A DNA stretch of 64,000 nt from Thermoanaerobaculia bacterium (lineage in GTDB: Bacteria; Acidobacteriota; Thermoanaerobaculia; Multivoradales; UBA5704): contig DASZZP010000038.1 in NCBI GenBank assembly GCA_035544875.1, positions 64,147 through 128,146 of the forward strand. Reading direction: 5' to 3'. This document shows, piece by piece, positions 2,013 through 51,375 of this stretch. Position 1 is the first letter of the stretch; every line of letters begins with the position of its first letter. A program made the position numbers and the translations under genes. The notes below the pieces were generated by a model. It did no database searches and was not told where the DNA came from. It worked only from the letters and a program-made list of their open reading frames with translations.

Positions 2013-3358
2013 TCGCGGAAGAGGTCGCCATATTTGAGCGGTTCGCCGTGCTCCCAGGGGCGGTAGCTGTTGCAGAAGTCGATGCGTTCGCCGAGCGGCG
2101 GATGGCTCGACCGCCAGAGCTTGTAGAGCAGGCTTGGCCGCGGGTAGCCGAGGTTCTCGTGCTGCAGCGCGACGAAAGCGGTCGCGGCGGCATGATTGTC
2201 GCGGGTCAGCTCGAGGCCGAAGCGGTCCGCCTCGTGCTCGAGGTGGCGCGAGAAGGCGAGCGCGAGCGGAGCGAAGAGCAGGAAGAACACCCCGAAGAAC
2301 AGCGACAGCAGCGGCAGCGATGCCACGTCGGCAAGCTCGCCGAAGCCGAAGCGGGCACGCCAGCGGGCGATGAGGCCGCCGGCGGTGCGGTGGATGACAT
2401 AGAGCCCCAGCAAGATGAGCGCCGCGGCGAAGACGATTCCCTGCAGCGTGTGGCCGAGCACGTAGTGCCCCATCTCGTGCCCCATTACGAAGAGCAGCGG
2501 CGAGCGGTCGAGCTTGGCGATGATGGTGTCCCAGAGCACGATGCGCTTGGTGTCGCCCAGCCCGCTCACATAGGCGTTGACCTCCTTGGTGTCGACGCTC
2601 TTGCGCACCTCGAAGACCCGGCTGCCCTCGATCCCCGCGCGACTGGCAAGGGCCAGGATCTGCGACTCGAGCTGCTTGTCCTTCATCGGGCCGAAGTCAT
2701 TGAACAGCGGCTCGATCCAGATCGGGCTGACCAGCAGCAGGAAGACCAGGAACGGCACCGCGGCCAGCCCCGTGTAAAGCCACCAGCGGCGCGGGCTCTT
2801 GGCGAGCAGCAGGTACGGCACCCAGAGGAAGATCACGCCGCCGACGAGACCGACCGCGAGTCCCTTGAGCGAGTCGGAAAACCATTTGGCGAAGGTCTGG
2901 TTCGAGAGCCCATAGTCGTGCTGGCGCACGAACCCCGCATAGTAGGCGAGCGGCCAGTCGAGCAAGTAGCTCACGAGGCTCCAGAAAACGAAGTAGAGCG
3001 CCACGACAAAGAACCACTTCCGGCCCAGGCGCTGCGCCCAGCCGCGCAGCCGGGCCGAGAACCCGGTGAATAGAAAGAGCGCCGGCACGGCGACGCCCCA
3101 GAGGACGTCGACCACCCACAGCACGTTGCCGGAACGGTGGTAGCGCGTCGCCTTCTCGTCCGGCTCGGGCACCGCGACCGGCGCGCTCGCCCTGCCGGCA
3201 GCCTGCGCGTCGGTGCTGCCGGCGGCTGGCGCCGGGCCGGCGGCGGCAAGCGGCCCCGCCGACAGCACCACCGCCTGAGCCGGCGGCGGAGCCAGGGCCC
3301 AGCTGGCCGGCAGGAGGACGACAGACTGGATGCAGGCAAGCCTCGTCAGGCGTTCCAT
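2006..3358 (-). CDS. M48-family (Ste24/HtpX-like) zinc metalloprotease, membrane-bound and secreted
   Basis: It has an HEMGHYVLGH (HExxH) motif, multiple transmembrane segments, an N-terminal signal peptide and the downstream glutamate ligand HLEHEADRFG. Confidence 0.85.
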   Translation of the reverse strand: MERLTRLACIQSVVLLPASWALAPPPAQAVVLSAGPLAAAGPAPAAGSTDAQAAGRASAPVAVPEPDEKATRYHRSGNVLWVVDVLWGVAVPALFLFTGFSARLRGWAQRLGRKWFFVVALYFVFWSLVSYLLDWPLAYYAGFVRQHDYGLSNQTFAKWFSDSLKGLAVGLVGGVIFLWVPYLLLAKSPRRWWLYTGLAAVPFLVFLLLVSPIWIEPLFNDFGPMKDKQLESQILALASRAGIEGSRVFEVRKSVDTKEVNAYVSGLGDTKRIVLWDTIIAKLDRSPLLFVMGHEMGHYVLGHTLQGIVFAAALILLGLYVIHRTAGGLIARWRARFGFGELADVASLPLLSLFFGVFFLLFAPLALAFSRHLEHEADRFGLELTRDNHAAATAFVALQHENLGYPRPSLLYKLWRSSHPPLGERIDFCNSYRPWEHGEPLKYGDLFRDH

Positions 3359-3562
3359 GGCGGGGGCCTCCTCTCTCCCTCTCTAGCGGTCTCTGCCAAC
3401 TCTACCCGTCTCTTCTCGTTCCTTGTCGTCCCTTCCTCCCCTTCCTCCCTCCTCGCCTTTCCTGCGCTCGCACCTTCATCCTACCCTCTCGCCCGGGCGC
3501 CGCCTCGCACCGGCCGAAAGCGCGGGTTCAGGAGCGGCGGCGCGCACCCGGTCGGAACGAGC

Positions 3563-6178
3563 TCAGGGAGCGGCAACCACCGACAGATCCGAGAATGCCC
3601 ACGACCAGAGAGGGAAGGAAGCGTGACCGAGTCGATCGCGCCCCAGGCCCAGTGCCGCTGGCGCGGCACTTCCGGGAGCCAACGGCGTGCTCAGCCGCAC
3701 CAGCGACGCTGCCGGCCCCGCCACCACCAGGCTCGCCACGGAGTCGCGTCGCTCGTAGCGCAGCCGCATGTGGACCCAGCGTTCGCCGCCGAGCGTCCAA
3801 GCCGTTTCGGAAGCGCCCTGTCGAGTCACGAGCAGCACGGCGCAGGCGCGGCTCGCCGCGCCGTCCCGGCCTCTCGTCGAGCCGCCGCCGCGCTCGTCCG
3901 GGCCACGCAGGGAGACCCGCGCCAGCTCCGAGCGATTCCCGTCTTGCAGCGTCACCACGTCGTAGACCGCGTTGCTCTCCAGGTCGCCGGAGCGCAGGTC
4001 GAAGGCGACGTCCAACGACCCGGCGGCGGCGCTCGCAGCCGGCAGCGAGAAGGTGCGAAACGAGCGCCCCGGGCTCGGCTCGAAGAAGGCGCCGGGAAGG
4101 AGGCGCAGCAGCTCGCCCCCAGGCATCGATCTCTCCTGGCTCCGCCTTTGGCCCCGCCAGCCCTCTCGGATCTGCCGGCCCTCTAGGCCCTGCCCGGCGT
4201 CCTGGTCCCGCCGCCCCTCCCGCCCTTGCCACCGCTCGAGTCCCTCCCACCCCTCCAGCCCCGCGACCTGCCGGCGCAGGGCGGCCGCGGCCGGGTAGCC
4301 GCTGCCGGCCAGCTGGTCGAGCAGGCGCCGCGCCTGGCGCGGCTCTCCCGCCTCCCAGCTCTCGAGCATCGCCAGGTAGCGGTAGGCGTCGGCCAGACCG
4401 GTGTGCTCGGCGCGCTCGCTCGCGAGCGCCGATCGCGGCCCTTCCGATGGCGCTTCGGGGCGGGCGAAGCGGTGCCGAGGGTCGTTCCACTGCTCGGCGA
4501 TCTCCTGCCAGGCCGCCCGCTCGCCGGCCTCGGGGTGCGGACCCAGGGCCAGACGCCCTTGGAGGACGAGCGCGATGCCGGCGACCGCCAGCAGCCCGGT
4601 CCGCAGCACGAGCGGGCCGCGCAGCCGCAACAGCAGACAACAGGTGCCTGCCAGCAACGTCCCCATCAGGGTCAGGGTGAGCGCGACGCCCAGCGATCGC
4701 CGGACGCCGGGAAGACCGGCGAAGTAGTTGTGCAGGCGGCCGCCGAGGGCCGACCGCAGCGCTCGCGCCCGGGCCTCGGCCGGGTCGTCCACGACCCCGC
4801 TCGCCCACCCCTCCGCCCCTCCCGACGAGGGGACGCCGCGCACCACCAGCGACAGGTCCTGGACCTGGCGCCAATAGAGATTGGCGACGAAGCATCCCCA
4901 GCCGCAGAGCGCGGCAAGTGCCACGATGAGCGCCCGCCGCCCCAGCCTCGAGCTCGGCGGGGCAGGCTGGATCGGCGAGACGGCTCGCCCCGCCGCGGCG
5001 AGATTGGCGAGGCCAATGGCGAGCAGCGGCACGCAGGAGGTCATCCGGCGGGCTCCAAATGAATGACCGCCCCACCAGTCGCGCACCGCGGCGCTGAGGT
5101 AGACCTCCACCGCCAGCACCGCGAGCGCCGCGATCCGCCAGTGCGGCGACAGCCGGCAGCGCCAGGGCAGCAGCAGCCCGGCCGCCGCCAGCGCAAAGAG
5201 CGGCGACCAGGTGAGCAGCCCGGAGTGGCCGGAAAGCAGGAAGTCGGCCAGGCGCGGCGCGGTCCAGCGCATGTACCCCTCGCCCTGCGGCACGGTCAGC
5301 CAGGAACCATACTCGAGGTGCCAGGCGTGAAGCTGCAGCGAGGCCACCACCGCGCCGCCAGCCGCCACCGCGGCCAGCAGCAGGGCCAGCCTCGGCAGGG
5401 CGCGGCGGCCGACGACGAGGAGGGGAGCCAGCGGCACCCAGAGGAGCAGCGCGAAGACCGCATCCTGCCAGCGCACCAGGAAGACCAGGCCGAGGGCCAC
5501 CCCGGCCAGGAGCGCGCAGCCGACTGCCGCGCCGGGGTGGCGGCCAGCGCTTCGGTCCCAGGCGCACACCTCGCGCTCCAGCCAGAGCAAACACGCCACG
5601 AACAGGCAGGTGGCCAGAGCGCTTGGCAGGTGGGCCATGGTGTAGACCGCCGGTCCATAGACCGCCAGCGGCGTGGCGGCCAGCAGCGCCACCGTGGCCA
5701 GCAGCGCCAGGCGGGGGTCGCTCCCCGTGCTCTCCAGCAGGCGGACCAGGAAGCAAGCGATCCCCGCCAGGAAGGCGAGCGACAGCAGGTGGAGCGCGGC
5801 GAGCTGCGCCCGGCTCCAGCGCCGGACCACGGCTGGCGGCGCCGCCGCCGGGCGCAACGGCAGGGCAGCGACGTAGGCCGGCAGCCAGAGCGCCGCCGGG
5901 CCGATGCTGAAGGTGTTCTTGAGGCTGCCGGAGGGGACGGTCGCGGTGAGAAAGGTCTGCAGGTCGCGCGGCGTCAGCTGGGAGTGCAGCGCATCGTTGC
6001 GCAGGTCGAGGTCGCCGTCCTCCACCAGCGACGAGGCCTGCAGTAGGTAGTAGGTGTCGTCCCAGCCGGTCCGTGTGCGGACCTCGCCGAACCCCCAGGA
6101 AAACGCGAAGACCAGGGCGGTAACCTTCAGCGGGGCGCGCCACGCTTGGAGCGCGGGACAGCGGTCCAGGACCGACAC
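3563..6178 (-). CDS. Polytopic membrane glycosyltransferase, GT39/GT83-like (PMT/ArnT family), with a C-terminal soluble domain
   Basis: The N-terminal half has more than 10 hydrophobic helices and a GWDDTYY motif in the first loop. The same-length ORF at 3528..6143 in another frame is a Pro/Arg/Gly-rich artefact. Confidence 0.65.
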   Translation of the reverse strand: MSVLDRCPALQAWRAPLKVTALVFAFSWGFGEVRTRTGWDDTYYLLQASSLVEDGDLDLRNDALHSQLTPRDLQTFLTATVPSGSLKNTFSIGPAALWLPAYVAALPLRPAAAPPAVVRRWSRAQLAALHLLSLAFLAGIACFLVRLLESTGSDPRLALLATVALLAATPLAVYGPAVYTMAHLPSALATCLFVACLLWLEREVCAWDRSAGRHPGAAVGCALLAGVALGLVFLVRWQDAVFALLLWVPLAPLLVVGRRALPRLALLLAAVAAGGAVVASLQLHAWHLEYGSWLTVPQGEGYMRWTAPRLADFLLSGHSGLLTWSPLFALAAAGLLLPWRCRLSPHWRIAALAVLAVEVYLSAAVRDWWGGHSFGARRMTSCVPLLAIGLANLAAAGRAVSPIQPAPPSSRLGRRALIVALAALCGWGCFVANLYWRQVQDLSLVVRGVPSSGGAEGWASGVVDDPAEARARALRSALGGRLHNYFAGLPGVRRSLGVALTLTLMGTLLAGTCCLLLRLRGPLVLRTGLLAVAGIALVLQGRLALGPHPEAGERAAWQEIAEQWNDPRHRFARPEAPSEGPRSALASERAEHTGLADAYRYLAMLESWEAGEPRQARRLLDQLAGSGYPAAAALRRQVAGLEGWEGLERWQGREGRRDQDAGQGLEGRQIREGWRGQRRSQERSMPGGELLRLLPGAFFEPSPGRSFRTFSLPAASAAAGSLDVAFDLRSGDLESNAVYDVVTLQDGNRSELARVSLRGPDERGGGSTRGRDGAASRACAVLLVTRQGASETAWTLGGERWVHMRLRYERRDSVASLVVAGPAASLVRLSTPLAPGSAAPAALGLGRDRLGHASFPLWSWAFSDLSVVAAP

Positions 6179-6297
6179 GGCCGATCCTAGCCTACCGGCT
6201 CCTCTTCATCGCTCTCGCCCGGTGGTCGATCCTGTAGGAGCCGCCGGCCGCCGGGCCGAGCTCCCGGCGCACTCGCTGTCTAGCTTTGGCCCGTGGG

Positions 6298-9045
6298 TCA
6301 GAATACCAGCCGCAAGCCCACTTCGTAGCGCCGCGGCTGCTGGAAGTCGGTGGCGGCGCCGAGCGGCACCTGGTCGGCGCTGGTGTCCCCCCCGCAACCG
6401 CCGGCGAACTGGCAGACCGCGGTCGGCCGCTGGCTCGAGAGAACGTTCTCGATGGTGCCGATCAGCTCTGCGCTGAGCGGTCCCAGGCGGAACGCCTTGC
6501 GCAGCTCGAGCTCCAGGGTGTAGCTGCTGTTCGCGCGCCGGCTGCCGCGCGGCTCCAGGAACTGGGTGCCATAGAGCGGCGGGTCGAGGTTCTGCAGCAC
6601 GCTGTAGGAGAAGGGCGACTCGTAGAGGGCGTTGAAGCCGGCCGAGAATCCGAGCGGCAGCTTGACGAAGCCCTTGACCTTCAACCGGTGCCGGCGGTCA
6701 TCGCTCAAGAAGCCATAGGTATTGACGAAGTGGACCGGGAAGACGTCGAAGTCGGGACCCGAACCCTGGGTGTACTCGACGCTGCCGCGTGACAGCGAGT
6801 AGGCGTAGGAAGCGACCAGGTAGAGGCGGTCGGCGGCGCGGGTCTCGAAGCGCAGCAGCAGCCCGTGATAGTCGCGCCGGGCGGCCGCCGGGTTGGTCAT
6901 CACCAGGTAGGGGCAGTGCACCAGCCCGGGGTCCGCCGTCGGCGTGGGGACGTTCTCGCTGCAGGTGTCCTCCAGGATGTGGCGCGTCTTCTTGTAGACG
7001 TAGGTGAGCTCGATCGAGCTGCGAGAAGCGAGCTGGCGCTGCAGCCCGAGCGTGAGCTCGTCGGCCGCGGCCGGCTGCAGCCGGGGGTCGACCCGGTTGG
7101 GCATGCTGCTCAGCACGTCGAAGAAGGCGTAGCCTGCCGGGTCGCGGTGCAGCGGGTCGGCGATGACCGCTCCGCCGTGGGCGGTGGCATAGCCCCGGCA
7201 CAGCGCCGCGACCTGCGCCGGATCGGCGACGCCAGGCGCGACGACGTCCGAGCACGAGACATAGCGGGTGGTCGGCGCCAGGCTCAGCCGCGCATAGAAG
7301 GGCAGCGAGAGCGCGCTCGGGTGCATGAACCGCCCGTAGCTGCCGCGCAGCAGGGTGTGGGCGTCGCCGAGCAGATCCCAGGCGAAGCCGAACCGCGGCT
7401 GCAGCGCGCTGAGGTTGGCGACGGCGTTGCCGGCCTCGTTGTGGTAGCCGACCGCGTCGTAGCGCAGGCCGAGCTTCACCGTCAGCGACGGCAGCAGGCG
7501 CCAGCCGTCCTGGAGGTAGGCGGCGGCGAGGTCGCCGGTGTAGCTCTTCGCCGGCAGCACCGGCGTCACGCTGAACAGGAAGGGGCCGCCCTGGCTCGAG
7601 TCGTCGACATAGGAGGCGCCGCCGACCGTGTTGTTGAGGGCATCGAGCGCCAGGCGGCCGTAGGAGAATCCAGCCTTGAACTCGTGCCCGCCGCCGCCCC
7701 AGCCCCCGCCGTCCGGCGCGGCCGGGCCGGCGGCGAACCAGGTCAAGCTGGTCTGCCCCTCGGCGCGCTCGCGGGTCGAGGACTGGACGTTGGCGGCGTT
7801 GACCGAGCTGATCTGGGTCGCCTGGTCGAAGACCCCCGGCGTCGCCAGGTCGCCGCTCGCCGGCGCATCGAAGATCCGGCGCCGGTTGACTCCCGCCTGC
7901 AGCTCCCAGAGCAGGTTGCTGCCCAGGGTGGCCGACAGCTCCCCCTGGGAGATGACCGAGCTCTGCCTCTCGGTCGCCGCCGCCGCCGGCTCGACGAACT
8001 GGCTGGCGTTGAAGTTGGTGTTGGTGAACGGCGTCGAGGAAGCCTTGAAGACCGCCCGCCATTGCGGGTCGATCTGCCAGCTCAGCTTGCCGAGGTAGTC
8101 CTCGCCGCGCAGGGTGTTGGCGGTCGGCGACAGGAACGGCGTCGTCGCCTGCTCTTGATACTCCGCCGAGGTGAAGAACCAGAGGCGGTCGAGCAGGACC
8201 GGACCGCCCAGGGTCGCGGCCGGCAGGATGAAGGTACTCTTGTCCCGGCTGGGGTCGAAGTGCGGCCCCTTCTCGCTCAGGGCGCTGGTCCGGTAGCGGG
8301 TGTCGAAGGTGCCGGAGAAGGAGTTGCCTCCCGACTTGGTGATGAGGTTGACGACGCCGCCGGTGGCGCGGCCATATTCCGCCTCGAAGCCGGCGGTGAA
8401 GAACGAGATCTCCTGGATGGCGTCGAAGTTGAAGTTGGTTCCCAGGGTGGCGGTGAAGGGATCGGTCGTGTCGAGGCCGTCGATCAGGTAGACGTTCTCG
8501 CCGACCGTCGAGCCGAAGACGTGGGGGTCGGAGTTGAGCTCGGAGAAGCCGACTCCCGCCGCCGAGCCGATCACCGACTGGTAGAGGCGGTCGTCGGCGC
8601 CGATCGAAGAGCGGTCCATGAACTCGGCGGTGAAGACCTGCCCGGTCGCCACCTGCAGCGGATCGAGCACCGGCGGCTCGGCGGTGACCGTCAGCTGCTC
8701 GGCCAGCTCGCCCGCTTCGAGCCGCGGAAAGACCGCGGTCGTGCGGTCGAGGAAAACGCGCACCTTGGCCAGCTCGATGCTCCGGAACCCGGAAAGCTCG
8801 GCCTTGACCCGGTAGAGGCCCGGATCGAGGCTGGGAAAGAGGAAACTGCCGTCGGCGCCCGTGCGGGTGCTGCGCGCGCCGCCGATCAGCGCCGGCGAGG
8901 AGGCGGTGACGGTGACCCCCGGCAGCGCCTCGCCCGCCGGGTCCTTGACCGTCCCGATCAGCTTGCCGCTCGAGGAGGCGCGCGCCTCCTGGCCGAGCAG
9001 CGCGCCGAGTGCGGCCAGCGCCAGCGCCAGGCGATCGACTCTCAT
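6298..9045 (-). CDS. TonB-dependent-receptor-like outer-membrane protein with an N-terminal CarboxypepD_reg domain
   Basis: The signal peptide is MRVDRLALALAALGALLGQEARA. It is followed by GTVKDPAGEALPGVTVTA...DGSFLFPSLDPGLYRV (CarboxypepD_reg), a TonB plug and barrel (ENVYLIDGLDTTDP, GGVVNLITKSG) and a C-terminal aromatic residue. I moved the start to the internal Met at 9045 (RBS GGGGGGA). Confidence 0.8.
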   Translation of the reverse strand: MRVDRLALALAALGALLGQEARASSSGKLIGTVKDPAGEALPGVTVTASSPALIGGARSTRTGADGSFLFPSLDPGLYRVKAELSGFRSIELAKVRVFLDRTTAVFPRLEAGELAEQLTVTAEPPVLDPLQVATGQVFTAEFMDRSSIGADDRLYQSVIGSAAGVGFSELNSDPHVFGSTVGENVYLIDGLDTTDPFTATLGTNFNFDAIQEISFFTAGFEAEYGRATGGVVNLITKSGGNSFSGTFDTRYRTSALSEKGPHFDPSRDKSTFILPAATLGGPVLLDRLWFFTSAEYQEQATTPFLSPTANTLRGEDYLGKLSWQIDPQWRAVFKASSTPFTNTNFNASQFVEPAAAATERQSSVISQGELSATLGSNLLWELQAGVNRRRIFDAPASGDLATPGVFDQATQISSVNAANVQSSTRERAEGQTSLTWFAAGPAAPDGGGWGGGGHEFKAGFSYGRLALDALNNTVGGASYVDDSSQGGPFLFSVTPVLPAKSYTGDLAAAYLQDGWRLLPSLTVKLGLRYDAVGYHNEAGNAVANLSALQPRFGFAWDLLGDAHTLLRGSYGRFMHPSALSLPFYARLSLAPTTRYVSCSDVVAPGVADPAQVAALCRGYATAHGGAVIADPLHRDPAGYAFFDVLSSMPNRVDPRLQPAAADELTLGLQRQLASRSSIELTYVYKKTRHILEDTCSENVPTPTADPGLVHCPYLVMTNPAAARRDYHGLLLRFETRAADRLYLVASYAYSLSRGSVEYTQGSGPDFDVFPVHFVNTYGFLSDDRRHRLKVKGFVKLPLGFSAGFNALYESPFSYSVLQNLDPPLYGTQFLEPRGSRRANSSYTLELELRKAFRLGPLSAELIGTIENVLSSQRPTAVCQFAGGCGGDTSADQVPLGAATDFQQPRRYEVGLRLVF

Positions 9046-9291: not shown

Positions 9292-11853
9292 ATGAGACCC
9301 GCCTTCTACCTGCGCGCCTTGGTGCGCGAGTCACGCCGCGCCCGCGGCCGCCTGACCTTCTTCGTCGCCTGCCTCGCCGTCGGCGTCACCGCGGTGGTGG
9401 CGGTGGCGGGCATCTCCGCCAGCCTCGACGAGGGCATCCGGATGGAAGCGCGCCAGCTGCTCGGCGCCGATCTCGCGGTGCGCGGCAGCCGGCCGCTCCC
9501 CCCCGACTTCGACTTCGGCGTAGCCGGGCTGCCGCTGCGCACGACCCAGGTCAAAGAGACCGTTACCGTGGTCTCGGCGCCTCCCGACGCCCAGGGGCGG
9601 CCCGGACGGAGCCAGCTGGTCGAGCTCAAGGCGGTCGCCGGCGAGTACCCCTTCTACGGCAAGCTCGTGCTGCGTCCGGCGCGGCCGCTCGCCGCCTTGC
9701 TCGACGCCGAATCGGCGGTAGTGGCGGTGGAGCTGCTCTCTCGCCTGCACCTCCGGATCGGCGACGCGCTGCGCATCGGCGGGCAGAGCTTCCGCATCGC
9801 CGGCGTGGTCCTCTCCGAGCCCGACCGCATCAGCGTCTCGCTCACTCTCGGGCCCCGGGTCTTCGTTGCCGCGGCAGGCCTCGCCCGCACCACGCTCGAG
9901 GGCCTCGGAAGCCGCTTCACCTACCGCACCCTGATCCAGGTTCCGGCGGGCACCTCGGGCGCGGCGCTGCAGGCCGCGGCCGAGCGGCTCAAGGAGCACC
10001 TGCCCAGCCCGACCATGTTCTTCCGCGTCGAAAGCTACCGCGACGCCCAGCCCGCGCTGCGCGACAACCTGGCCCGCATCGAGCGCTTCCTCGGCCTGGT
10101 CGCGCTGCTCTCCTTGTTCGTCGGCGGCATCGGCGTGGCGCAGAGCGTGCGTGCCTGGATCAGCGGCCGGCTCGATGCGATCGCCGTGCTCAAGTGTCTC
10201 GGGATGCGGCCGCGCGAGCTCTTCCTGCTCTACTTGGGTCAGGCCGCCCTGCTCGGCGTGGCCGGGAGCCTGGTCGGAATCGCCGCCGGCAGCGGCCTGC
10301 AGGCCTTGCTGCCGCGGCTCTTCCCCGAGCTGATCCCGGCCGAGCTGCTGCGCGCCTGGCAGCCGGCTGCCCTGCTGCGCGGCCTTGGTCTCGGCGTGGG
10401 GGTGGCGATTCTCTTCAGTCTGCCGCCGCTCTCGGCGGTGCTGCGGGTGCCGCCGGTGCGGGTGCTCCGCCGCGAGGCCGAGCCGCTGCCGATCCACCGC
10501 TGGACGGCCGCCGCTACGCTGGCGGCGCTCGCCGCCGGCATCTTCGGCTTTGCCACCCTGCAGTCGCGTTCCTGGCTGCTCGGGGCCCAGTTCACCGGCG
10601 GCGTGGCCTTCGCCGCCGCGGCGCTCAGCCTGGGCGCGCTCGCCATCACCCGTGCCGTGCGCCGTCTGCCGCGCCGCTTCGCCCGCCTGCCGCTGCGCCA
10701 CGGCCTCGCCGCGCTGGCGCGGCCCGGCGCCGCGACGCTGTCGGCGATCGTCGCTCTCGGCCTCGGAGTGCTGGTGGTCCTCGCCATGTCGCTGGTCGAG
10801 CGCCGTCTGTCGCGCCAGTTCACCCGCGAGCTGCCGGCCGACGCTCCCAACGTCTTTCTGATCGATATCCAGCCCGATCAGTGGCCGGGAGTCCGGCAGC
10901 TGCTCGCACGCGCCAGGGCGCGGCGCATCGAGTCGGTGCCGGTCATCACCGCCCGCCTGGTGGCCATCGACGGCGTCGGCGCCGAGCAGCTGGTTCAGCG
11001 GCAGCGCAGCGCGCGCCGCACCGGAGACGGCCGCGGCGGCCACCGCTGGGTGCTGACCCGCGAGCAGCGGCTGACCTCGCTCGCCGCCCTGCCGGCCGAC
11101 AACGAGATCGTCGCCGGCAGGCTGTGGAGCGATCCCGGGCGCGCCGAAGCGAGCGTCGAGAAGTCCTTTGCCGACGACCTCGGCGTGCGGCTGGGTTCGG
11201 TCCTGCGCTGGGACATCGAAGGAGTTCCCTTTGACTTGACGGTGACCAGCATCCGCACCGTCAACTGGCGCTCGTTCGGCATCAACTTCTCGGTGGTGGT
11301 CAAGCCGGGGGTGCTCGATCAGGCGCCCCAGCAGCGGTTCGCGGCGGCGCGCATCGCCCCCGGCGGCGAGCAGCGCTTGCAGGACCTGCTCGCGGCGAGC
11401 TACCCCAACATCACCCTGCTGCGCATCCGCGACGTGCTCGAGCGAGTGCTCACCGTCCTCAACCGGATCGCGGTCGGCGTCAGGTTCCTCGGCGCTTTCA
11501 CGGTGCTGGCCGGCATCGCAATCCTGGCCGGGGCCGTCGCCGCCGGCTCGGTGCGGCGCGGCCGCGAGGTCGCCCTGCTCAAGACGCTCGGCCTCACCCG
11601 CCGCGGTGTTGCATCCAGCTTCGCGGTCGAGTACGCGCTGGTCGGCCTGGTCGCCGGCGCGATCGGCGCCGCCGCCGGCGCGCTGCTGGCCTGGGGCGTC
11701 ATCACGCGCGGCTTCAACCTCGCGCCCGAGCTCGAGCCGCTGCCGGTCGGGGCCGCCGTCGTGGCGAGCGTCTTCCTCACCGTCATCGCCGGCCTCGCCG
11801 CCAGCCTCCGCGCCCTCGAGCGCCGCCCGATCGAAGTCCTGCGCAACGAATAG
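9292..11853 (+). CDS. ABC transporter permease with duplicated FtsX domains (MacB/YbbP-like; ADOP-type without the prefix domain)
   Basis: There are two FtsX 4-TM modules (..LKCLGMRPRELFLLYLGQA.., ..LKTLGLTRRGVASSFAVEYAL..) separated by a large periplasmic domain. I chose the Met at 9292 (MRPAFYLRALVRE). Confidence 0.8.
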   Translation: MRPAFYLRALVRESRRARGRLTFFVACLAVGVTAVVAVAGISASLDEGIRMEARQLLGADLAVRGSRPLPPDFDFGVAGLPLRTTQVKETVTVVSAPPDAQGRPGRSQLVELKAVAGEYPFYGKLVLRPARPLAALLDAESAVVAVELLSRLHLRIGDALRIGGQSFRIAGVVLSEPDRISVSLTLGPRVFVAAAGLARTTLEGLGSRFTYRTLIQVPAGTSGAALQAAAERLKEHLPSPTMFFRVESYRDAQPALRDNLARIERFLGLVALLSLFVGGIGVAQSVRAWISGRLDAIAVLKCLGMRPRELFLLYLGQAALLGVAGSLVGIAAGSGLQALLPRLFPELIPAELLRAWQPAALLRGLGLGVGVAILFSLPPLSAVLRVPPVRVLRREAEPLPIHRWTAAATLAALAAGIFGFATLQSRSWLLGAQFTGGVAFAAAALSLGALAITRAVRRLPRRFARLPLRHGLAALARPGAATLSAIVALGLGVLVVLAMSLVERRLSRQFTRELPADAPNVFLIDIQPDQWPGVRQLLARARARRIESVPVITARLVAIDGVGAEQLVQRQRSARRTGDGRGGHRWVLTREQRLTSLAALPADNEIVAGRLWSDPGRAEASVEKSFADDLGVRLGSVLRWDIEGVPFDLTVTSIRTVNWRSFGINFSVVVKPGVLDQAPQQRFAAARIAPGGEQRLQDLLAASYPNITLLRIRDVLERVLTVLNRIAVGVRFLGAFTVLAGIAILAGAVAAGSVRRGREVALLKTLGLTRRGVASSFAVEYALVGLVAGAIGAAAGALLAWGVITRGFNLAPELEPLPVGAAVVASVFLTVIAGLAASLRALERRPIEVLRNE

Positions 11854-29088: not shown

Positions 29089-31407
29089 TCAGGAGAAACG
29101 CTCTCCCAGGCGCTCGATCACCTGGGCAAGATCGGGCACCGTGGTCAGCACCGGCGCCAGAGGGTCCTCGCGCAGCCGGCGCAGGCGGGCGGGGACGGTG
29201 GCCAGAGTGAAGGCGCGCACGTCGAGGCGCGCGCCGACCTCGCGCCAGGTGAGGGGGGTCGAGACCGGGGCACCGGGGAAGGGGCGTACGGAGAACGGTG
29301 CGGCGAGCAGCTTGCCGCGGCCGTTTTGCAGGGCGTCGACGTAGACCCGGCCGCCGCGGGCCGGGATCGCCCGGACGGTGGTGGCGATGCGCGGCAGGCG
29401 GGCGACGACGAGCCGTGCCAGGAGCTCGGCGAGCTGGCGCGACTGTTCGTGGTCGAACTGTCCCCCGAGGGGCAAGAGGACATGCAGGCCGCTGCCGCCG
29501 CTGGTCTTGATGAAGGCGGTGAGGCCGATCTCCTCGCACAGCTCGTGGATCTCGCGGGCGATGTGGATGACGTCGGCGAAGGGCGCTCCCTTCGGATCGA
29601 GGTCCAGGATGCACCAGTCCGGCCGCTCAAGGGCGGCGAAGCGGCTCGACCAGATGTGGAGCGGGATGGCGCCGAGGTTGACCAGGGTGAGCAGCGATTC
29701 GACGCTGTCGCCGAGGAAGGCGTCGATCGTGCGCTCCCCGGCCTCGCCCTGCAGCCGCACGCTGCGCAGGCCGGCGCGGGAGGCTGCGTGGAGCGTCTCG
29801 GCGCTCTTCTGGAAAAACGACTTGCCGGCGATGCCGTCAGGATAGCGGTCAAGGACCAGCGGCCGGTCGCGCAAGTAGGCCAGCAGCCAGGGGCTGACGG
29901 CGTAGTAGTAGCGGGCGAGATCGCCCTTGGTGTAGCCCTCGTCGGGCCAGAACACCTTTCCCGGCCGCACCAGCTCGATCGGCAGCTCGCCCGTCGCATT
30001 CGAGCCCGGCACCGCTGGAGCCTGCCCCTCGCGCCCCCCACGCCCGCCGGACCCGCCACCCCGCACCGCTGCGCGGCCCGGACTCTCTCCGCCGACCGTG
30101 CCACGACCGGCCGGGACACCTCCCGCCGCCCCTCCCGGTTCTGCCGCGCGGCCCGCGCGCCGCCGGCCGGCGGCGCTCTTCCTCACCGCTGGCGGCGCCG
30201 ATGCCCCTGACTCCACCTGCGGCACCGATCCAGGGGTCGGCTCTCGCTCTTCCTCCGGAGCGGCCGCGTCCAGATCTTCGGGATGCCGGCAGTCTTGCGC
30301 CCTCTTGTCGTCGCGCAGGCGCAGGAAGATCGGTTGGCGCAGGCTGCCGCCTTCGGTCCACTCCTTGTAGCGGACTTCGCAGACCAGCTCGGGAGCGACC
30401 CAGACCGTCGACCGGTCCGCCCGCGCCGTGTCGCCGCGCAGCCCGAGGGCGGCCGGCTGGCGCCGGCGGGCGCTGGCGAGCCGGGCGGCGATCGCGGCGC
30501 GGGTCGCGCCGTTCCAGCCGCTGCCGACGCTGCCGGCATAGAGCAGACCGCCAGGGGTGTGGACCGCCATCTGCAAGGCCCGCAGGTCGCCGGACGCGGC
30601 CATCACGAAGCCGACCACCGCGAAGTCGCCGCTCCGGTCGACCCGGATCTTCTGCCAGTCGGCCGAGCGCCCGGCCTGGTAAGGGGAGTCGGCGCGCTTT
30701 GCCATGATCCCCTCGAGGCCCAGCCCCGCGACCGCCGCGAATAGCTCTTCGCCGCGCTCGGGCAGCTCGTCGACATAGCGCAGCGTCCCCCCGCCCTCGC
30801 CCGTCGCCAGCACCTGGCGCAGCGCCGACTTGCGGGCCGCGAGCGGCAGCGGCCGCAGATCGAAACCCGCGCAGGCCAGCAGATCGAAGGTGAAGAGGGT
30901 CGCCGGCGCGGCGGCCGCCGCCCGCGATGTGTCGGCGCCCGGTTGGCGCAGCGCCCGCTGCTGCAGCAGGCCGAAGCTCGGCCGAAAGGCCGCGTCCAAG
31001 ACCACAACTTCGCCGTCGACGACGAGGTCCGGGAAGGGCAGCTCGGTCACCGCGGCCACCAGCTCCGGGAAGAGCTGCGTGGCGTCGCGGCCGCTCCTGT
31101 AGAGCAGGCGCACTCTCCCGGCATCCTTGCCGGCGAGCATGCGGAAGCCGTCGTACTTGAGCTCGAACCACCAGCCGGGACCGCTGAACGGCCGCTCGCG
31201 GGTCTCGGCCTGCATGGGCACGACCTCGGCGACGTTGACCGCCAGGCGCGGCGCGCCCAGCCGGGTCAGCAGGCGGCGCAGCTCGGGGGCCGAGCCGGCC
31301 GCCGGCGCTCCAGCACCGCCGGCAGCGCCAACGCCGGCAGCGGCGCCGCCGGCGCGGCGGCCGCCGCCGCTCGGGGTTGCGTCCTGTCGTTTCTTTCCGC
31401 GCGCCAT
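29089..31407 (-). CDS. ligD: ATP-dependent DNA ligase LigD (ligase domain plus C-terminal polymerase/primase domain)
   Basis: ELKYDGFR is the adenylation Lys motif, and ligase motifs III-V follow (LEGIMAKR). The C-terminal LigD-Pol domain includes GKSFFQK, FIKTSGGSGLHV and YVDALQNGRGK. An alternative start at the Met at 31215 has a better RBS. Confidence 0.85.
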   Translation of the reverse strand: MARGKKRQDATPSGGGRRAGGAAAGVGAAGGAGAPAAGSAPELRRLLTRLGAPRLAVNVAEVVPMQAETRERPFSGPGWWFELKYDGFRMLAGKDAGRVRLLYRSGRDATQLFPELVAAVTELPFPDLVVDGEVVVLDAAFRPSFGLLQQRALRQPGADTSRAAAAAPATLFTFDLLACAGFDLRPLPLAARKSALRQVLATGEGGGTLRYVDELPERGEELFAAVAGLGLEGIMAKRADSPYQAGRSADWQKIRVDRSGDFAVVGFVMAASGDLRALQMAVHTPGGLLYAGSVGSGWNGATRAAIAARLASARRRQPAALGLRGDTARADRSTVWVAPELVCEVRYKEWTEGGSLRQPIFLRLRDDKRAQDCRHPEDLDAAAPEEEREPTPGSVPQVESGASAPPAVRKSAAGRRRAGRAAEPGGAAGGVPAGRGTVGGESPGRAAVRGGGSGGRGGREGQAPAVPGSNATGELPIELVRPGKVFWPDEGYTKGDLARYYYAVSPWLLAYLRDRPLVLDRYPDGIAGKSFFQKSAETLHAASRAGLRSVRLQGEAGERTIDAFLGDSVESLLTLVNLGAIPLHIWSSRFAALERPDWCILDLDPKGAPFADVIHIAREIHELCEEIGLTAFIKTSGGSGLHVLLPLGGQFDHEQSRQLAELLARLVVARLPRIATTVRAIPARGGRVYVDALQNGRGKLLAAPFSVRPFPGAPVSTPLTWREVGARLDVRAFTLATVPARLRRLREDPLAPVLTTVPDLAQVIERLGERFS

Positions 31408-31441
31408 CGAAAAACCGCGTAAGGAATGGTATATTAGCCGA

Positions 31442-32515
31442 ATGAGCGCGCGACCCTTCGCTTCAGGAATGGTTTCTTTCGGCCTGGTCACGATCCCGGT
31501 GAAACTTTACTCGACGGGTGAAGCCGCGGCGGGCATCCAGCTCAACATGCTGCACAGCAAGTGCGGCACACGGCTCAAGCAACAGTATGTCTGCCCGACC
31601 GATGACGAAATCGTTGGAAGAGAGGAAATGGTGAAAGGCTATGAATACGCCAAGGGCCAGTATGTCCTCTTTTCCGAAGAAGAGCTGAAAGCGCTCAACC
31701 GCGAGGCGACCAACACCATCGAGATCGCCGAGTTCGTGCCCATCGAGGAGGTCGACCCGATCTACTTCGAGAAATCGTATTACCTGGGTCCGGACAAGGG
31801 CGGCGAGCGTCCGTACCGCCTGCTCGCCGAAGCGATGAAGACCACCTCGCGCGCGGCGCTGGCGCGCTATGCCGCGCGCGGCAAGGATTATCTGGTTCTG
31901 ATCCGCCCCTTCGAGGAAGGGCTCATCATGCAGCAGCTCCGTTATCACGACGAGCTGCGCTCGTTCTCCGAAGTGCCGATCGCTCCGGCCGAGGTCCGCG
32001 AGCCGGAGCTCAAGCTTGCCATCCAGATCATCGATCAGATCGCCACCGACCGCTTCGACCCCGCGGCTTACGAGGACCAGGTCAGGAAGCAGACGCGCGA
32101 GCTGATCGACAAGAAGGTGGCCGGCCAGGAGATCACCGCCGCCCCCGTCGAGGCGCCGAAGGCGCAGATCATCGACCTCATGGCGGCGCTCAAGGCCAGC
32201 CTGTCCTCCGGGAGCGCTGTGGGCAAGCCGTCGCGCCGCGCGGCCCGGTCCGCCGCCAGCCGTCCAGCCCGCGCCACCCTCGCGACCAGCGCCAGCGTGG
32301 AGCCGGCCCCCGCGGCCGCACCGTCCCGCGCCGCCGCCGCCGCAGCGACATCGCGCTCCACGGGTTCGCAACGTGGCGCGCGCTCTGCGCAGTCCCGGCC
32401 CAAGGCGGCGGCCACCGCCGACCGCAAGCCGCCGCACCCTTCCCCGCGCCAGTCGCTGCGCGAGGCCCCCGTCACGGCGCCTTCCCTGACCAGGAAGCGA
32501 GATTCGAAGCGCTGA
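31442..32515 (+). CDS. ku: Ku end-binding protein (NHEJ) with a basic C-terminal tail
   Basis: MVSFGLVTIPVKLYS...YEYAKGQYV is the Ku core. It is divergent from ligD with only 34 bp between the two start codons. The TATATT -10-like box abuts the ATG, so the mRNA may be leaderless. Confidence 0.9.
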   Translation: MSARPFASGMVSFGLVTIPVKLYSTGEAAAGIQLNMLHSKCGTRLKQQYVCPTDDEIVGREEMVKGYEYAKGQYVLFSEEELKALNREATNTIEIAEFVPIEEVDPIYFEKSYYLGPDKGGERPYRLLAEAMKTTSRAALARYAARGKDYLVLIRPFEEGLIMQQLRYHDELRSFSEVPIAPAEVREPELKLAIQIIDQIATDRFDPAAYEDQVRKQTRELIDKKVAGQEITAAPVEAPKAQIIDLMAALKASLSSGSAVGKPSRRAARSAASRPARATLATSASVEPAPAAAPSRAAAAAATSRSTGSQRGARSAQSRPKAAATADRKPPHPSPRQSLREAPVTAPSLTRKRDSKR

Positions 32516-44831: not shown

Positions 44832-45008
44832 GGGCGTCACCAATGCTATCGCGAGGCGGACGCCGACCCCGGTCGACGGCTGCGCGTAGAGGCTGCGCAT
44901 GCTAGCGTTCGTTCTTTCTGTTGTATCATCTGACTCGGCGTTGAAATGACGCACGATCGCCTGTATATTAACTAGAGCACCGACGATCAGTCGGCAAAGG
45001 AGCGCGAA

Positions 45009-45479
45009 ATGAGCGAGGTGGTCTACGTTTCAGAGGTGAGGATCGAGCGCCAGGCTGGACCGCTGCGGCTCGCCTACCTGCCCGCGGAGGCCCATCCGGT
45101 GGTATTCGGCGTGCACGGCGCCGTCGCGGCGCACTACAAGGTGAACCCTGACCTGCTGGAGCCGCATGCGACGACGCTGGACTATGTCGTGGCGGCCACC
45201 GGCGGCTGACTCACCGGCACCTTCGGGGGCGCGCTGGAGGCGCGCAAGATCGACGCAAGCAACCGGCTGCTGCGGGCCGAGGTCAGGGGCGAGATCGAGC
45301 TCGAGGACCACGTCCTGGTCATCCGGCGTATCCACGTCACCTATCGGCTCTCGGCTCCGGCCGCGGTGAGCGAGGTCGTCACGCGGGTGCATGCGGTTCA
45401 TGCCATGAGCTGCCCGATCTACCGCTCGCTCTACAAGGCCATCGACATCACGACCGAGGTGAGGCTCGAGGAGCCCTAG
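45009..45479 (+). CDS. OsmC/Ohr-family peroxiredoxin with an in-frame TGA (45207-45209) at the peroxidatic Cys position; candidate selenoprotein or nonsense pseudogene
   Basis: An AAGGAG RBS precedes it. [10 protein letters not shown][TGA]LTGTFGGAL aligns with the OsmC ...aLagCf.mTf... motif, and the resolving CP motif ([11 protein letters not shown]) is 64 codons downstream. The same frame runs across the TGA to the TAG at 45477. Confidence 0.55.
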
Positions 45480-45589: not shown

Positions 45590-45901
45590 TTACGGGCAGA
45601 CCGCGAGGGCGCTCGTGTCCTGGATCGGCTGGAAGGTCGTGCTCTGCGGGTTGCGGTAGATGTGGCTGGCTCCGGTCTGGGTGTCGGTCACCGTGGTCGC
45701 CACCTGGACGTTGGTCAAGCCGCCGGCGAAGACCCAGTAGTTGTGGTTGAGGCCGCAGCCGTTCAGCACCTTGATCACTTCCTCGACATTGGACTGGCTA
45801 AAGAACCAGAAGTAGCCGGTGTCGGGAGTGAGCTGGACGGCATGCAGCGCGGGCTGTGTTGCCTTTGACCGTGGGTTCGGGTAGCGTGCCTGCACGCCCA
45901 T
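45590..45901 (-). CDS. Orphan 103-aa ORF homologous to the duplicated C-terminal domain of the M12B protease at 51376..53523
   Basis: GYFWFFSQSNVEEVIKVLNGCGLNHNYWVFAGGLTNVQVATTVTDTQTG aligns with GAFFFTDPGNLELLAKILNLGNRIAVFYGTLSDLEYTLTVTDTQTG in the protease. There is no signal peptide, and the start overlaps the hflK start (CCATGG). Confidence 0.35.
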   Translation of the reverse strand: MGVQARYPNPRSKATQPALHAVQLTPDTGYFWFFSQSNVEEVIKVLNGCGLNHNYWVFAGGLTNVQVATTVTDTQTGASHIYRNPQSTTFQPIQDTSALAVCP

Positions 45902-48336: not shown

Positions 48337-49317
48337 TCAGCGCTGCGGTGCCGGTGGAGGCTTCGGCCCTGTCTTTGACTCGCGATAGCCGGCGTTTCTG
48401 GCGTCGGCCTCGGTCATGCATTGGCCGTGCTTGGTCTTGCCGTACCAGCGCTCGCCCTCGCGGTAGAACACCTTGCTGCCGGGGTTTGCCCAGACCATGT
48501 CCTTGGCGCACTGCCGCGCTCCGGCCTCGACGGTGCCCGCGCCGCCCGCGCTGCCGGTAGCGCCCGCCGGAGCCGCGTTCGCGCCACTCGCCCCAGGAGC
48601 TCCCGCCGGACCCGCTGTGCCCGCCGGACCGCCGGCCGCCGGCGGCGAGGCGGGAACGGGAGGCGAGGCTGCGCCGGCCGCGGCAGCCGGCATCGCCGAA
48701 GCCTTACCGGCCGAGGCGTAGGGGGCCAGCTTCGCGATCGCCGCGGCCGGCAGACCGGCGCGCATCAGGTCTTCCACGGTCGAGTAGGGACGCGCGGCGA
48801 TGATCTTCTTCGCGATCGCCGGCCCCACCCCGGGAAGCGTCGTGAGCTGTTTCTCGGTCGCGGAATTGAGGTCGACCTTCGGGGCCGGGGGTGGCAGCGC
48901 GCCGAGCGCCCTCTCCTGGGCGGGCGTCCTGGCGGTGCCCGGCCCCGCCGCGCCGCGGAGCGCAGGCGGGGTGGGAGGCGCTCCCGTGGCTGCCTGCTCT
49001 CCCCGCCGTTCAGTTCCGGCGGCGGCACCTACGGTCACCAGCCGCGCGATCTGATCGACCGTCTTGGCCGGCACCCCGGCCCTGATCAGGTCGGTCACGG
49101 CGGCGTAGGGACGCCCGGCAACGATCTTCATCGCCGTGGTGGAACTGACCCCCGGCAGCTTCTCGAGCTCCTTCATACTCGCCAAGTTGATGTCGATCAA
49201 CCCAGGAGGTTGATTGGCCGCCGACGCCGCCAACCAGCCGGTCGATGCCACCGTCATCGCCAAGGCCAGGCAGAGTGCGGTCCAGGCGAGCCGGCACCTG
49301 CTGCTCGTTGCGTTCAT
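48337..49317 (-). CDS. ComEA-like secreted DNA-binding protein (two HhH modules) with a C-terminal Cys-pair domain
   Basis: IDINLASMKELEKLPGVSSTTAMKIVAGRPYAAVTDL and VDLNSATEKQLTTLPGVGPAIAKKIIAARPYSTVEDL are two ComEA helix-hairpin-helix units. The start is the Met at 49317, which gives a signal peptide. Confidence 0.75.
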   Translation of the reverse strand: MNATSSRCRLAWTALCLALAMTVASTGWLAASAANQPPGLIDINLASMKELEKLPGVSSTTAMKIVAGRPYAAVTDLIRAGVPAKTVDQIARLVTVGAAAGTERRGEQAATGAPPTPPALRGAAGPGTARTPAQERALGALPPPAPKVDLNSATEKQLTTLPGVGPAIAKKIIAARPYSTVEDLMRAGLPAAAIAKLAPYASAGKASAMPAAAAGAASPPVPASPPAAGGPAGTAGPAGAPGASGANAAPAGATGSAGGAGTVEAGARQCAKDMVWANPGSKVFYREGERWYGKTKHGQCMTEADARNAGYRESKTGPKPPPAPQR

Positions 49318-49427
49318 CGGCTCTTCTCCTTTCGCGGCGTGCCCCGTGCCAGTATCGCGCGGGCTGGCACCCGCCGCCGAGCTCATTCAGGAGACGGCGA
49401 CAGCCGCGGCGCCTCGCCCGCTCACCT

Positions 49428-50819
49428 ATGATAGAGCCTATGGAACGCCAAGACCTCATCGCCAGATACCGCGCGACGCGAGCTCTGAGCGTTGCGCTCT
49501 GCTCCCCCTTGGCGTCCGAGGACTACCGCGTCCAGTCGATGCCCGACGTCAGCCCGCCGTGGTGGAACCTGGGCCACACCACGTGGTTCTTCGCCAAGAA
49601 CATCCTCGAGCCCTTCGGCCGCTATGGCGCCGGCGACGCGCGCTTCGAATATGCGCTGAACTCGTACTACGAGTCGCTGGGGCCGCGCCTGGCCCGCGAC
49701 CACCGCGGGCTGGTGACCCGCCCGACGACCGCCGAGATCTACCGCTTCCGCGCCTCGGTCGACGAGCGCTTCGGAGCTCTGGTCGCCGAGGCCGGCGAAG
49801 CCGATTACCCGCGGCTGCAGTTCCTAGCCCTGACCGGCATCCAGCACGAGCAGCAGCACCAGGAGCTGCTGGTGACCGAGATCAAGCACATCCTGGGCTC
49901 GAACTTGCCCGAGCTCCGCGAGCCCTACCTGCCCGCGGCGGGCGGCGGCACGCCGCCGGCGCTGGCGGAGCGCGAGCCCGATCCGGCCGGCCGCGTCGCA
50001 CCCTCCGGGCCGCTGCCCGCGCGGCCGGTCGCGTTTGCCGGCGGCCTGTTCGAGTTCGGCAACCTCGAGGGAGGCTGGTGCTGGGACAACGAGATGCCCG
50101 TGCACCGGGCCTATCTCGAGCCTTTCGTCCTGCTCGACCGCCTGGTGACCAATGGCGAGTACCTCGAGTTCATCGAGCAGGGCGGCTACGCCGACCCCCT
50201 GCTGTGGCTGGCCAACGGCTGGGCGCGGGTGCAGGAGGCCGGCTGGTCGGCGCCGCTCTACTGGGAGCGCGAGGGCGGCAGATGGCAGCTGTGGACGCTC
50301 GGCGGCCGGCGCGCCCTCGACGTCGACGAGCCGGTCTGCCACGTCAGCTTCTACGAAGCCGACGCCTATGCCCGCTGGCAGGCGCGCCGCGGCGGCGCCT
50401 CGGCCGGCGCTCGCCTGCCGACCGAACGCGAATGGGAACATGCCGCCCGCGTCGCCGGATTCCCGGGACCGGCGCCGAACTTCCTGGAGAGCGGCAGCCT
50501 CCACCCGCGCCCGTTCGCGCGGCCGGGCGCGCCGGCAGCGCAGGGGCCGCCCGCGGCGGCCGAGGACATGGGGATGGCGCAGCTCGGGGGTGACGTGTGG
50601 GAATGGACCTCCAGCCACTACGAGCCCTATCCCGGCTACCAGCCCTTCGACGGCAATCTGATGGAATACAACGGCAAGTTCATGGACAACCAGCGCGTCC
50701 TGCGCGGCGGCTCCTGCGCCACCCCCGCCGCGCACATCCGGCCCAGCTACCGCAACTTCTGGCCCGCCGACACCCGCTTCCAGTTCACCGGCATCCGCCT
50801 CGCGCTGCCCATGGCCTGA
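49428..50819 (+). CDS. egtB: EgtB-like sulfoxide synthase (DinB_2 plus FGE-sulfatase domains)
   Basis: WWNLGHTTWFF...EQQHQELL is the DinB_2 iron-binding triad. GGDVWEWTSS...RVLRGGSC is the FGE/SUMF1 domain. Confidence 0.75.
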   Translation: MIEPMERQDLIARYRATRALSVALCSPLASEDYRVQSMPDVSPPWWNLGHTTWFFAKNILEPFGRYGAGDARFEYALNSYYESLGPRLARDHRGLVTRPTTAEIYRFRASVDERFGALVAEAGEADYPRLQFLALTGIQHEQQHQELLVTEIKHILGSNLPELREPYLPAAGGGTPPALAEREPDPAGRVAPSGPLPARPVAFAGGLFEFGNLEGGWCWDNEMPVHRAYLEPFVLLDRLVTNGEYLEFIEQGGYADPLLWLANGWARVQEAGWSAPLYWEREGGRWQLWTLGGRRALDVDEPVCHVSFYEADAYARWQARRGGASAGARLPTEREWEHAARVAGFPGPAPNFLESGSLHPRPFARPGAPAAQGPPAAAEDMGMAQLGGDVWEWTSSHYEPYPGYQPFDGNLMEYNGKFMDNQRVLRGGSCATPAAHIRPSYRNFWPADTRFQFTGIRLALPMA

Positions 50820-50839: not shown

Positions 50840-51343
50840 CTACCAGCCCGCGGTGCCCGCTCCGCCTTTGAACGGACCGACGATCTCGGCGGTGATCCAG
50901 CCGCCGTAGAAGTCTCCCGGCTGGGCGCGCGCCGGCTCGCCGTCGACCAGGCAGCGCTCCATCGCCTGGGGATAGAAGGCGACGTGATCGCGGATCTCCT
51001 TGTAGCTCAAGGTCGGCTCGGGGTAGCTCCAGGCGGCATCAGGCGCCCGCCGGCCGCCGGCCGCCACGTCATAGTAGCTGGCAAGACCCTTCCACTCACA
51101 AAAGCTGCGGCGCTCCGAGGGCAGCAGGTGCTCCATGCGGATGTCGGACGGCGGCAGGTAGTAAACCGGCGGATGACTGGTCTCCAGCACGCGCCAGCAA
51201 CTCCGGCTCTCGGCCAGCAAGACGCCGCCGAAATGGATCTGGACGAGCTTGGCGCAGCGCTCGAGCCGCGGCGGGCGCGGGTAGTCCCAGACCGACTCCT
51301 GCCCCGGCCCGGGCACCACGCGCTCTATCGCAACACGCTTCAT
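50840..51343 (-). CDS. DUF427-domain protein
   Basis: PVYYLPPSDIRMEHLLPSERRSFCEWKGLASYYDV...VAFYPQAMERCLVDGEP is the DUF427 signature. Confidence 0.65.
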   Translation of the reverse strand: MKRVAIERVVPGPGQESVWDYPRPPRLERCAKLVQIHFGGVLLAESRSCWRVLETSHPPVYYLPPSDIRMEHLLPSERRSFCEWKGLASYYDVAAGGRRAPDAAWSYPEPTLSYKEIRDHVAFYPQAMERCLVDGEPARAQPGDFYGGWITAEIVGPFKGGAGTAGW

Positions 51344-51375
51344 GAGCTCCGCCTTCTCACCCTACCGGCCGCTTG

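Follow-up and report, generated by a model that had tools for sequence, protein, structure and literature searches.

The gene and its surroundings

On the forward strand of the window (the whole 64-kb stretch of DNA that was analyzed), positions 45009-45479 make up a single frame of 157 codons, which opens with ATG at 45009, closes with TAG at 45477-45479 and carries one internal TGA at 45207-45209, the only in-frame TGA inside this OsmC-family gene. Translation through that TGA yields 156 residues. The features of the locus, and the evidence by which each was placed, are as follows.

44941-44969, plus strand: promoter-like TTGAAA-17-TATATT, about 40 nt 5' of the start codon (consensus scan, a pattern match only)
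44996-45002, plus strand: Shine-Dalgarno-like AAAGGAG, 6 nt 5' of the ATG (direct reading of the sequence)
45009-45479, plus strand: OsmC-like gene, candidate selenoprotein, 156 codons, with putative Sec67 and with Cys135 (translation, Pfam OsmC)
45207-45209, plus strand: in-frame UGA, putative selenocysteine codon, residue 67, at the peroxidatic position (ortholog codon alignment)
45229-45245, plus strand: SECIS-like hairpin GCGCGC-UGGAG-GCGCGC, inside codons Gly74-Arg79 (RNAalifold, synonymous-site conservation)
45411-45413, plus strand: TGC of Cys135, the presumed resolving cysteine, in HAMSCP (homolog alignment)

The promoter-like site matches the consensus at 10 of 12 positions and is the one such site found against 0.2 expected. 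The N-terminus of the predicted protein, MSEVVYVS, agrees with that of full-length homologs. Over 45057-45300, the TGA included, a Logan contig (L169, run SRR12277194) has exactly the window's sequence; it may share the window's reads.

The gene is flanked by a divergent nicotinate phosphoribosyltransferase gene and, on the opposite side, by a small unknown ORF, beyond which lie two adjacent Band_7 (HflK/HflC-like) genes. A convergent ORF directly 3' of the OsmC-type gene (45590-45901, minus strand, 103 codons) has a GC3 of 0.89, a strong sign of coding, and matches nothing in Pfam; a 101-residue gene is called at the equivalent place in the L169 contig. Apart from a Prx-like gene that is taken up below, the neighbors of the OsmC-type gene are not conserved among relatives.

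Protein family and fold

With cysteine written for the internal stop, the protein matches the Pfam OsmC profile (PF02566) over residues 57-150 with an E value of 1.1e-11 and 45.5 bits; this exceeds the gathering cut-off of 27.5 and places the protein in the OsmC/Ohr superfamily. A sequence-profile search of the PDB returned nothing at E <= 0.01 and OsmC/Ohr proteins as weak matches (E 0.03-0.4), so that a search by fold was needed. An AlphaFold model was made for the Cys-containing ortholog P0002, which is 72% identical to the window protein, from a 36-sequence alignment; its pLDDT is 94.5. The top Foldseek matches of this model in the PDB are all of the OsmC/Ohr type (TM 0.6-0.75). Among them are Ta0195 (2onf), Ohr (1usp), E. 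coli OsmC (1nye/1qwi) and T. thermophilus OsmC (1ukk), with TM 0.66-0.72, E 5e-9 to 1e-7 and 11-18% identity to the modeled protein.

The fold of the ortholog model is thus the one common to the two-cysteine organic hydroperoxide reductases of the OsmC/Ohr type (1qwi/1nye, 1ukk, 1usp/1zb9, 2onf). The window family also shares their placement of the redox residues, the first in a long helix and the second, a cysteine, past the second helix as part of a C-P motif: in the P0002 model, residue 67 lies within the long helix 56-78, and Cys135 is located where helices 118-134 and 136-141 meet. Profile alignment sets the TGA column against the cysteine of Thermus OsmC (1ukk, 'HAGCF') and Cys135 against the CP motif of OhrB (2bjo) and of 1ukk. 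By alignment, then, the UGA holds the peroxidatic position. Both redox residues of the OsmC/Ohr type are conserved, the first as the U/C column and the second as Cys135 in its C-P motif; the Cys135 column is cysteine in 116 of the best 120 of 2230 homologs, and Cys135 is invariant in alignments A1 and A2. The window family differs from the known reductases in an N-terminal stretch of about 55 residues whose sequence is its own and in the apparent replacement, within the window's clade, of the peroxidatic cysteine by selenocysteine; its hydroperoxide activity is putative.

These results bear out what an earlier note had read from the sequence of the locus: that translation through the TGA gives a complete 156-residue OsmC-family protein (the translation itself and the PF02566 match), that the TGA stands at the position of the peroxidatic cysteine (cysteine in 32 of the best 120 homologs, aligned with the 1ukk cysteine) and that a second cysteine follows in HAMSCP.

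Conservation of the TGA codon

A protein search returned 2230 homologs, and column statistics were taken from the best 120. Of these, 79 have W at the TGA column, 32 have C, 4 have G and 2 have L, and there is one R and one A. The remaining entry, P0095 (88% identical, 'OsmC family protein' of 90 aa at NCBI), starts directly after the TGA. What the DNA encodes at this column was read from the P0095 contig (L001), from 80 JGI metagenome loci and from 80 loci in genomes of GTDB species. Counting the window, 162 of 165 sequences have TGA opposite 45207-45209 (161 of the 164 loci); the three exceptions, L002-L004, have TGG and are one lineage. Since the loci were picked by their similarity to the window's clade, in part through the pattern GTFGGALEA, the figure of 162 in 165 describes this clade and not the OsmC superfamily as a whole. 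The proteins of these loci are 58-88% identical to that of the window. They come from Pyrinomonadaceae/Blastocatellia, Bryobacterales/Solibacteraceae, Terriglobia/Acidobacteriaceae and Thermoanaerobaculia, and a few further loci are from Binatia, KSB1, Calditrichaceae and one 'Cytophagia' MAG.

P0032 and P0039 are W entries of the database; in the DNA of loci whose flanking residues are identical to theirs, the codon is TGA. The W entries are consequently TGA translated under another code, as verified for these two, and the same probably holds for at least some of the G entries. Database W or G at this column (for example P0032, P0039, P0031 and P0040) has the look of a systematic annotation artifact that hides a selenoprotein. 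The TGG of L002-L004 had suggested taking the W column as genuine tryptophan, with the window's TGA a nonsense mutation of TGG; this was dropped on the evidence of TGA in 162 of 165 sequences and in the DNA behind P0032 and P0039. Cysteine forms, the usual counterparts of selenoproteins, account for the 32 C entries, and their TGT and TGC codons are confirmed in the DNA of L165-L168.

The coding sequence beyond the TGA is under selection. Compared with L001, its closest relative, the window has a dN/dS of 0.078/0.395 (~0.20) after the TGA and 0.076/0.592 (0.13) before it; more distant pairs behave in the same way around the TGA, and the frame after the TGA is open as far as the family's normal C-terminus. 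Purifying selection downstream of the UGA shows that translation continues past it. In the window at large, TGA terminates 21 of 40 plausible genes, and a scan of the window for internal TGAs flanked on each side by coding signal yielded, besides the OsmC gene, only ordinary gene junctions. Together these two observations rule out a global reassignment of TGA.

The hairpin downstream of the TGA

The hairpin at 45229-45245 consists of a 5' arm (45229-45234), a loop UGGAG (45235-45239) and a 3' arm (45240-45245). Its stem has 6 bp, or 7 with a possible closing U-G pair that leaves GGA at the apex; it begins 19 nt after the UGA, and the loop lies 26 nt after it. As PMC1088965 describes them, bacterial SECIS elements are stem-loops a short way past the UGA whose small apical loop contains G, and the window's hairpin has these features in its position and in its small, G-containing loop. 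Rfam, at its gathering thresholds, has no match anywhere in the window. The folding energy of 45207-45270 is unremarkable for a sequence of 70% GC (z = +0.68 against shuffles). Energy being uninformative in DNA of this composition, the evidence for the hairpin is comparative.

The comparison covers 138 unique sequences that contain the TGA, the T of which is counted as position 1. RNAalifold finds a consensus hairpin of -11.6 kcal/mol, and the pairs G23-Y39, Y24-G38, G25-C37, C26-G36, G27-C35 and C28-G34 are retained in 136-138 of the 138; U29 can pair with R33, with an apical GGA left over. G occupies the synonymous positions +27, +30 and +36 in 137-138 of 138, C or U (either of which pairs with G) fills +24 and +39 with almost no exception, and at the first positions of the leucine and arginine codons in the hairpin the alternative codon families are never used. 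Outside the hairpin, four-fold sites of this alignment reach an entropy of 1.6-1.9 bits, which is near saturation. Double compensatory changes are absent from the 138 sequences, the pattern being one of invariance and of variation confined to wobble pairs, and for that reason the support for the hairpin is synonymous-site conservation rather than covariation. The constraint on the hairpin, as judged from these sites, is one on the RNA, beyond any on the protein. A constraint of this kind explains why all TGA forms have one and the same ten-residue sequence across the hairpin, whereas the distant Cys forms vary there (GTLGRALxxRK and similar).

The earlier note had described the same GCGCGC-UGGAG-GCGCGC hairpin and judged its place right for a bacterial SECIS. 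The hairpin is real, although it starts 19 and not 18 nt after the UGA; its assignment as a SECIS draws support from synonymous-site conservation in the 138 sequences and none from the ordinary folding energy.

Forms in which the codon has changed are informative about what the hairpin does and does not signify.

P0002 (L165), close Cys form: codon TGT, hairpin kept
P0006 (L166), close Cys form: codon TGC, hairpin kept
L002-L004, Trp form: codon TGG, hairpin kept
P0120 (L171:4202-4204), Leu form: codon TTA, hairpin kept
P0103 (L167/L168), more distant Cys form: codon TGC, hairpin lost (GGG GCG CTC GAC GCA CGC)

Each of these codons (TGT, TGC, TGG, TTA) is one mutation away from TGA, and L165, L166, L002-L004 and L171 retain the hairpin sequence GGC GCG CTG GAR GCG CGC. 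Because Cys, Trp and Leu variants keep it, the hairpin by itself is no proof of selenocysteine. The distribution suggests that selenocysteine was ancestral in the clade and that the Cys, Trp and Leu variants would be recent losses with a fossil hairpin. The comparisons that the earlier note had proposed thus favor its reading: the aligned codon is TGA in nearly all of the clade's sequences, the window's included, and Cys-containing homologs exist, the distant ones without the hairpin.

Selenocysteine machinery and a second TGA gene in relatives

The 64-kb window contains no tRNA detectable by ARAGORN and no SelA, SelB or SelD homolog (ORF translations inspected by eye, and tblastn with the L124 proteins). 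The case for selenocysteine decoding in the window's organism accordingly rests on its relatives. ARAGORN finds 15 tRNAs in the 1.69 Mb of fetched loci, two of which are tRNA-Sec (in L054 and L124), and tblastn with SelD, SelA and SelB of L124 matches only L124 and L054. The components, and one example of a second gene with an in-frame TGA, are located as follows.

L124 4041-5138, minus strand: selD (NF002098, 513 bits)
L124 5229-6662: selA (TIGR00474, 582 bits)
L124 6659-8578: selB (TIGR00475, 413 bits)
L124 8631-8726: tRNA-Sec (ARAGORN)
L054 5216-5312: tRNA-Sec (ARAGORN)
L054 5368-5898: start of selD, a fragment (tblastn)
L054 1650-2957: AhpC/TSA-DsbD_N gene with TGA at 2118-2120 (further examples in L113, L015 and L131)

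In L124, a Bryobacterales MAG, the selD-selA-selB-tRNA-Sec cluster (4041-8726) is separated by 1.3 kb from the OsmC-type TGA gene that follows it (10001-10462); in L054, tRNA-Sec and then the selD fragment come after the OsmC-type gene (3001-3468), within 2 kb. In 35 related loci the OsmC-type gene is immediately preceded by a second gene with an in-frame TGA, a fusion of AhpC/TSA and DsbD_N domains. Its motif is FFRSADW-U-P[FY]C (W-U-P-x-C), and it has a conserved hairpin of its own, CAGCU-SGUSG-AGCUG, the stem of which starts 14 nt after the UGA. The gene is of the kind of the Prx-like/AhpC-TSA selenoproteins with UxxC; its hairpin, with G and U in the loop, is comparable to that of the OsmC-type gene, whereas the gene itself and the fold of its product are different. 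The AhpC/TSA-DsbD_N gene is absent from the window. A CcdA/DsbD-like and a ResA-like sequence in L054 were also considered as a fusion with an internal TGA and were rejected: they are separate genes, the second with an ordinary CxxC motif.

From the selenocysteine machinery and the second TGA gene beside orthologs it follows that bacteria with such orthologs do decode UGA as selenocysteine. By analogy, the UGA would be decoded in the same way in the window's own organism.

A probable selenocysteine codon and its alternatives

The reading that we favor, at a probability of about 0.88, is that 45009-45479 encodes a single OsmC/Ohr-fold protein of the thiol-peroxidase type, 156 residues long, and that the TGA at 45207-45209 is a selenocysteine codon, with selenocysteine replacing the first active-site cysteine of this OsmC-like protein. 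On the standard mechanism, a ribosome arriving at the UGA would find the hairpin at 45229-45245, with its apical GGA, 19 nt downstream, acting as a bacterial SECIS; the hairpin would recruit SelB-GTP with Sec-tRNA(Sec), and selenocysteine would be inserted in place of termination. From the chemistry of OsmC/Ohr proteins, the selenol of Sec67 would then attack a hydroperoxide, Cys135 would resolve the resulting selenenic acid to a selenenylsulfide, and a thiol or lipoyl donor would reduce the latter. Binding of SelB to this hairpin is predicted by analogy, as are the peroxidase chemistry and the substrate of the protein.

The selenoprotein interpretation was already that of the earlier note, and it now has behind it the conservation of the TGA and of the hairpin, purifying selection and the machinery in relatives. 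That note's alternative was a nonsense pseudogene, a dead gene in which TGC or TGG had mutated to TGA and from which a 66-residue fragment would be made. Gene callers agree with such a break, the closest NCBI relative (P0095/L001) being annotated as separate 66-aa and 90-aa products, and the selenocysteine machinery is not seen in the window. A dead gene would not, however, be expected to show the same TGA in 162 of 165 sequences that are 58-88% identical and come from several phyla, a frame open to the family's normal C-terminus, a dN/dS of about 0.2 after the TGA and, downstream of it, a Cys135 conserved to the extent described above. The conserved TGA and the downstream dN/dS effectively exclude a pseudogene, which we regard as the least credible explanation of the locus. 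Only slightly less implausible is a split gene, in which residues 1-66 and 68-156 are made as two polypeptides by reinitiation after the TGA and assemble into an OsmC-like protein. An annotation pipeline did call a 90-aa product that begins right after the TGA in L001, but in the window the codon that follows the TGA is CTC, which is no start codon and is not preceded by a Shine-Dalgarno sequence; the long helix 56-78 of the P0002 model would be cut midway, and the catalytic residue, which homologs keep as cysteine, would be lost.

Decoding of the UGA as one of the standard amino acids deserves more weight than either of these, yet it too is improbable. It would require a code in which UGA is Trp or Gly, or near-cognate read-through promoted by the hairpin, for example by tRNA-Trp to give Trp67. 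Many database entries do have W or G at the TGA column, and the genuine TGG of L002-L004 and the TTA of L171 imply that a residue without redox function can be encoded there. Against it, TGA ends 21 of the 40 plausible genes of the window, where this internal TGA is the only one that looks coding; TGA is what the DNA has behind the W entries P0032 and P0039; homologs have cysteine at this column, aligned with the catalytic cysteine of OsmC; and a complete selenocysteine machinery and a second gene, with a U-x-x-C motif, adjoin orthologs.

Relation to known OsmC-like selenoproteins

An 'OsmC-like protein' (COG1765/YhfA-type, with a UxxT motif) is among the selenoprotein families that Zhang, Fomenko and Gladyshev described in 2005 from the Sargasso Sea, on three Sec-containing sequences (PMC1088965), and the family is still listed in reviews of 2022 and 2026 (PMC9312934, PMC13188914). 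An early survey has only three selenoprotein families in Acidobacteriota. The window's clade has in common with the known family the PF02566 domain, selenocysteine (in the reading favored here) for the first conserved cysteine with a threonine shortly after it, the existence of Cys homologs, and a hairpin with an apical G that follows the UGA within the coding sequence. It differs in its motif, which is U-L-T-G-T (UxT/UxxxT) with Thr at +2 and +4, whereas the known family has UxxT, with Thr at +3, and in its extent: the known family was defined on the three marine sequences, whereas the window's clade has at least 160 members, mostly from soil Acidobacteriota. The known family has a curated NCBIfam model, NF041052 'OsmC-related (seleno)protein', with a cut-off of 95 bits; the window protein scores 19.6 bits (E 6.5e-4), below that cut-off, which leaves it outside the curated family. 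With the family's reference sequences (AACY01145085, MBR72571.1, MCS5647933.1), the comparison is by description and by this NF041052 score.

Public records of the window's clade are truncated or have W or G at the selenocysteine position, and JGI names the homologs 'uncharacterized OsmC-like protein'. Given the known family, the low NF041052 score and the truncated or mistranslated records, the gene is a new representative of a selenoprotein type already described, and it apparently belongs to a large and unannotated clade of that type. A more extended reading, to which we give even odds as a whole, is that this is a distinct, uncatalogued Sec-OsmC clade, separate from the marine NF041052 family, widespread in soil Acidobacteriota and with selenocysteine ancestral; that in many genomes it would form, with AhpC/TSA-DsbD_N, a two-selenoprotein module of peroxide or thiol redox chemistry that is sometimes physically joined to selD-selA-selB-selC; and that the 17-nt GCGCGC-UGGAR-GCGYGY would be a minimal SECIS that hardly varies and dictates the peptide GGALEAR.

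If the favored reading is correct, the gene is intact, and splitting it into 66-aa and 90-aa products, or translating its TGA as Trp or Gly, misdescribes at least 160 genes of soil Acidobacteriota and neighboring phyla. The clade would add an abundant selenoprotein to the Acidobacteriota and would imply that part of the peroxide defense of these soil bacteria depends on selenium. It would also offer an example of a compact SECIS, one in which the hairpin restricts six codons and the GGALEAR peptide marks the Sec forms. The current understanding of how selenocysteine is decoded is left unchanged by this OsmC-like clade.

Other genes of the window

A protein with DinB_2 and FGE-sulfatase domains is encoded at 49191-50819 (plus strand), 3.7 kb 3' of the candidate selenoprotein gene; the two domains are those that EgtB-type sulfoxide synthases combine. 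A DUF427 gene at 50840-51361 (minus strand) comes after it. At 29089-32515, inspection of the translations by eye points to a LigD-like ligase/polymerase ORF on the minus strand and a Ku-like ORF on the plus strand, the stop-to-stop frames of which overlap at 31103-31506.
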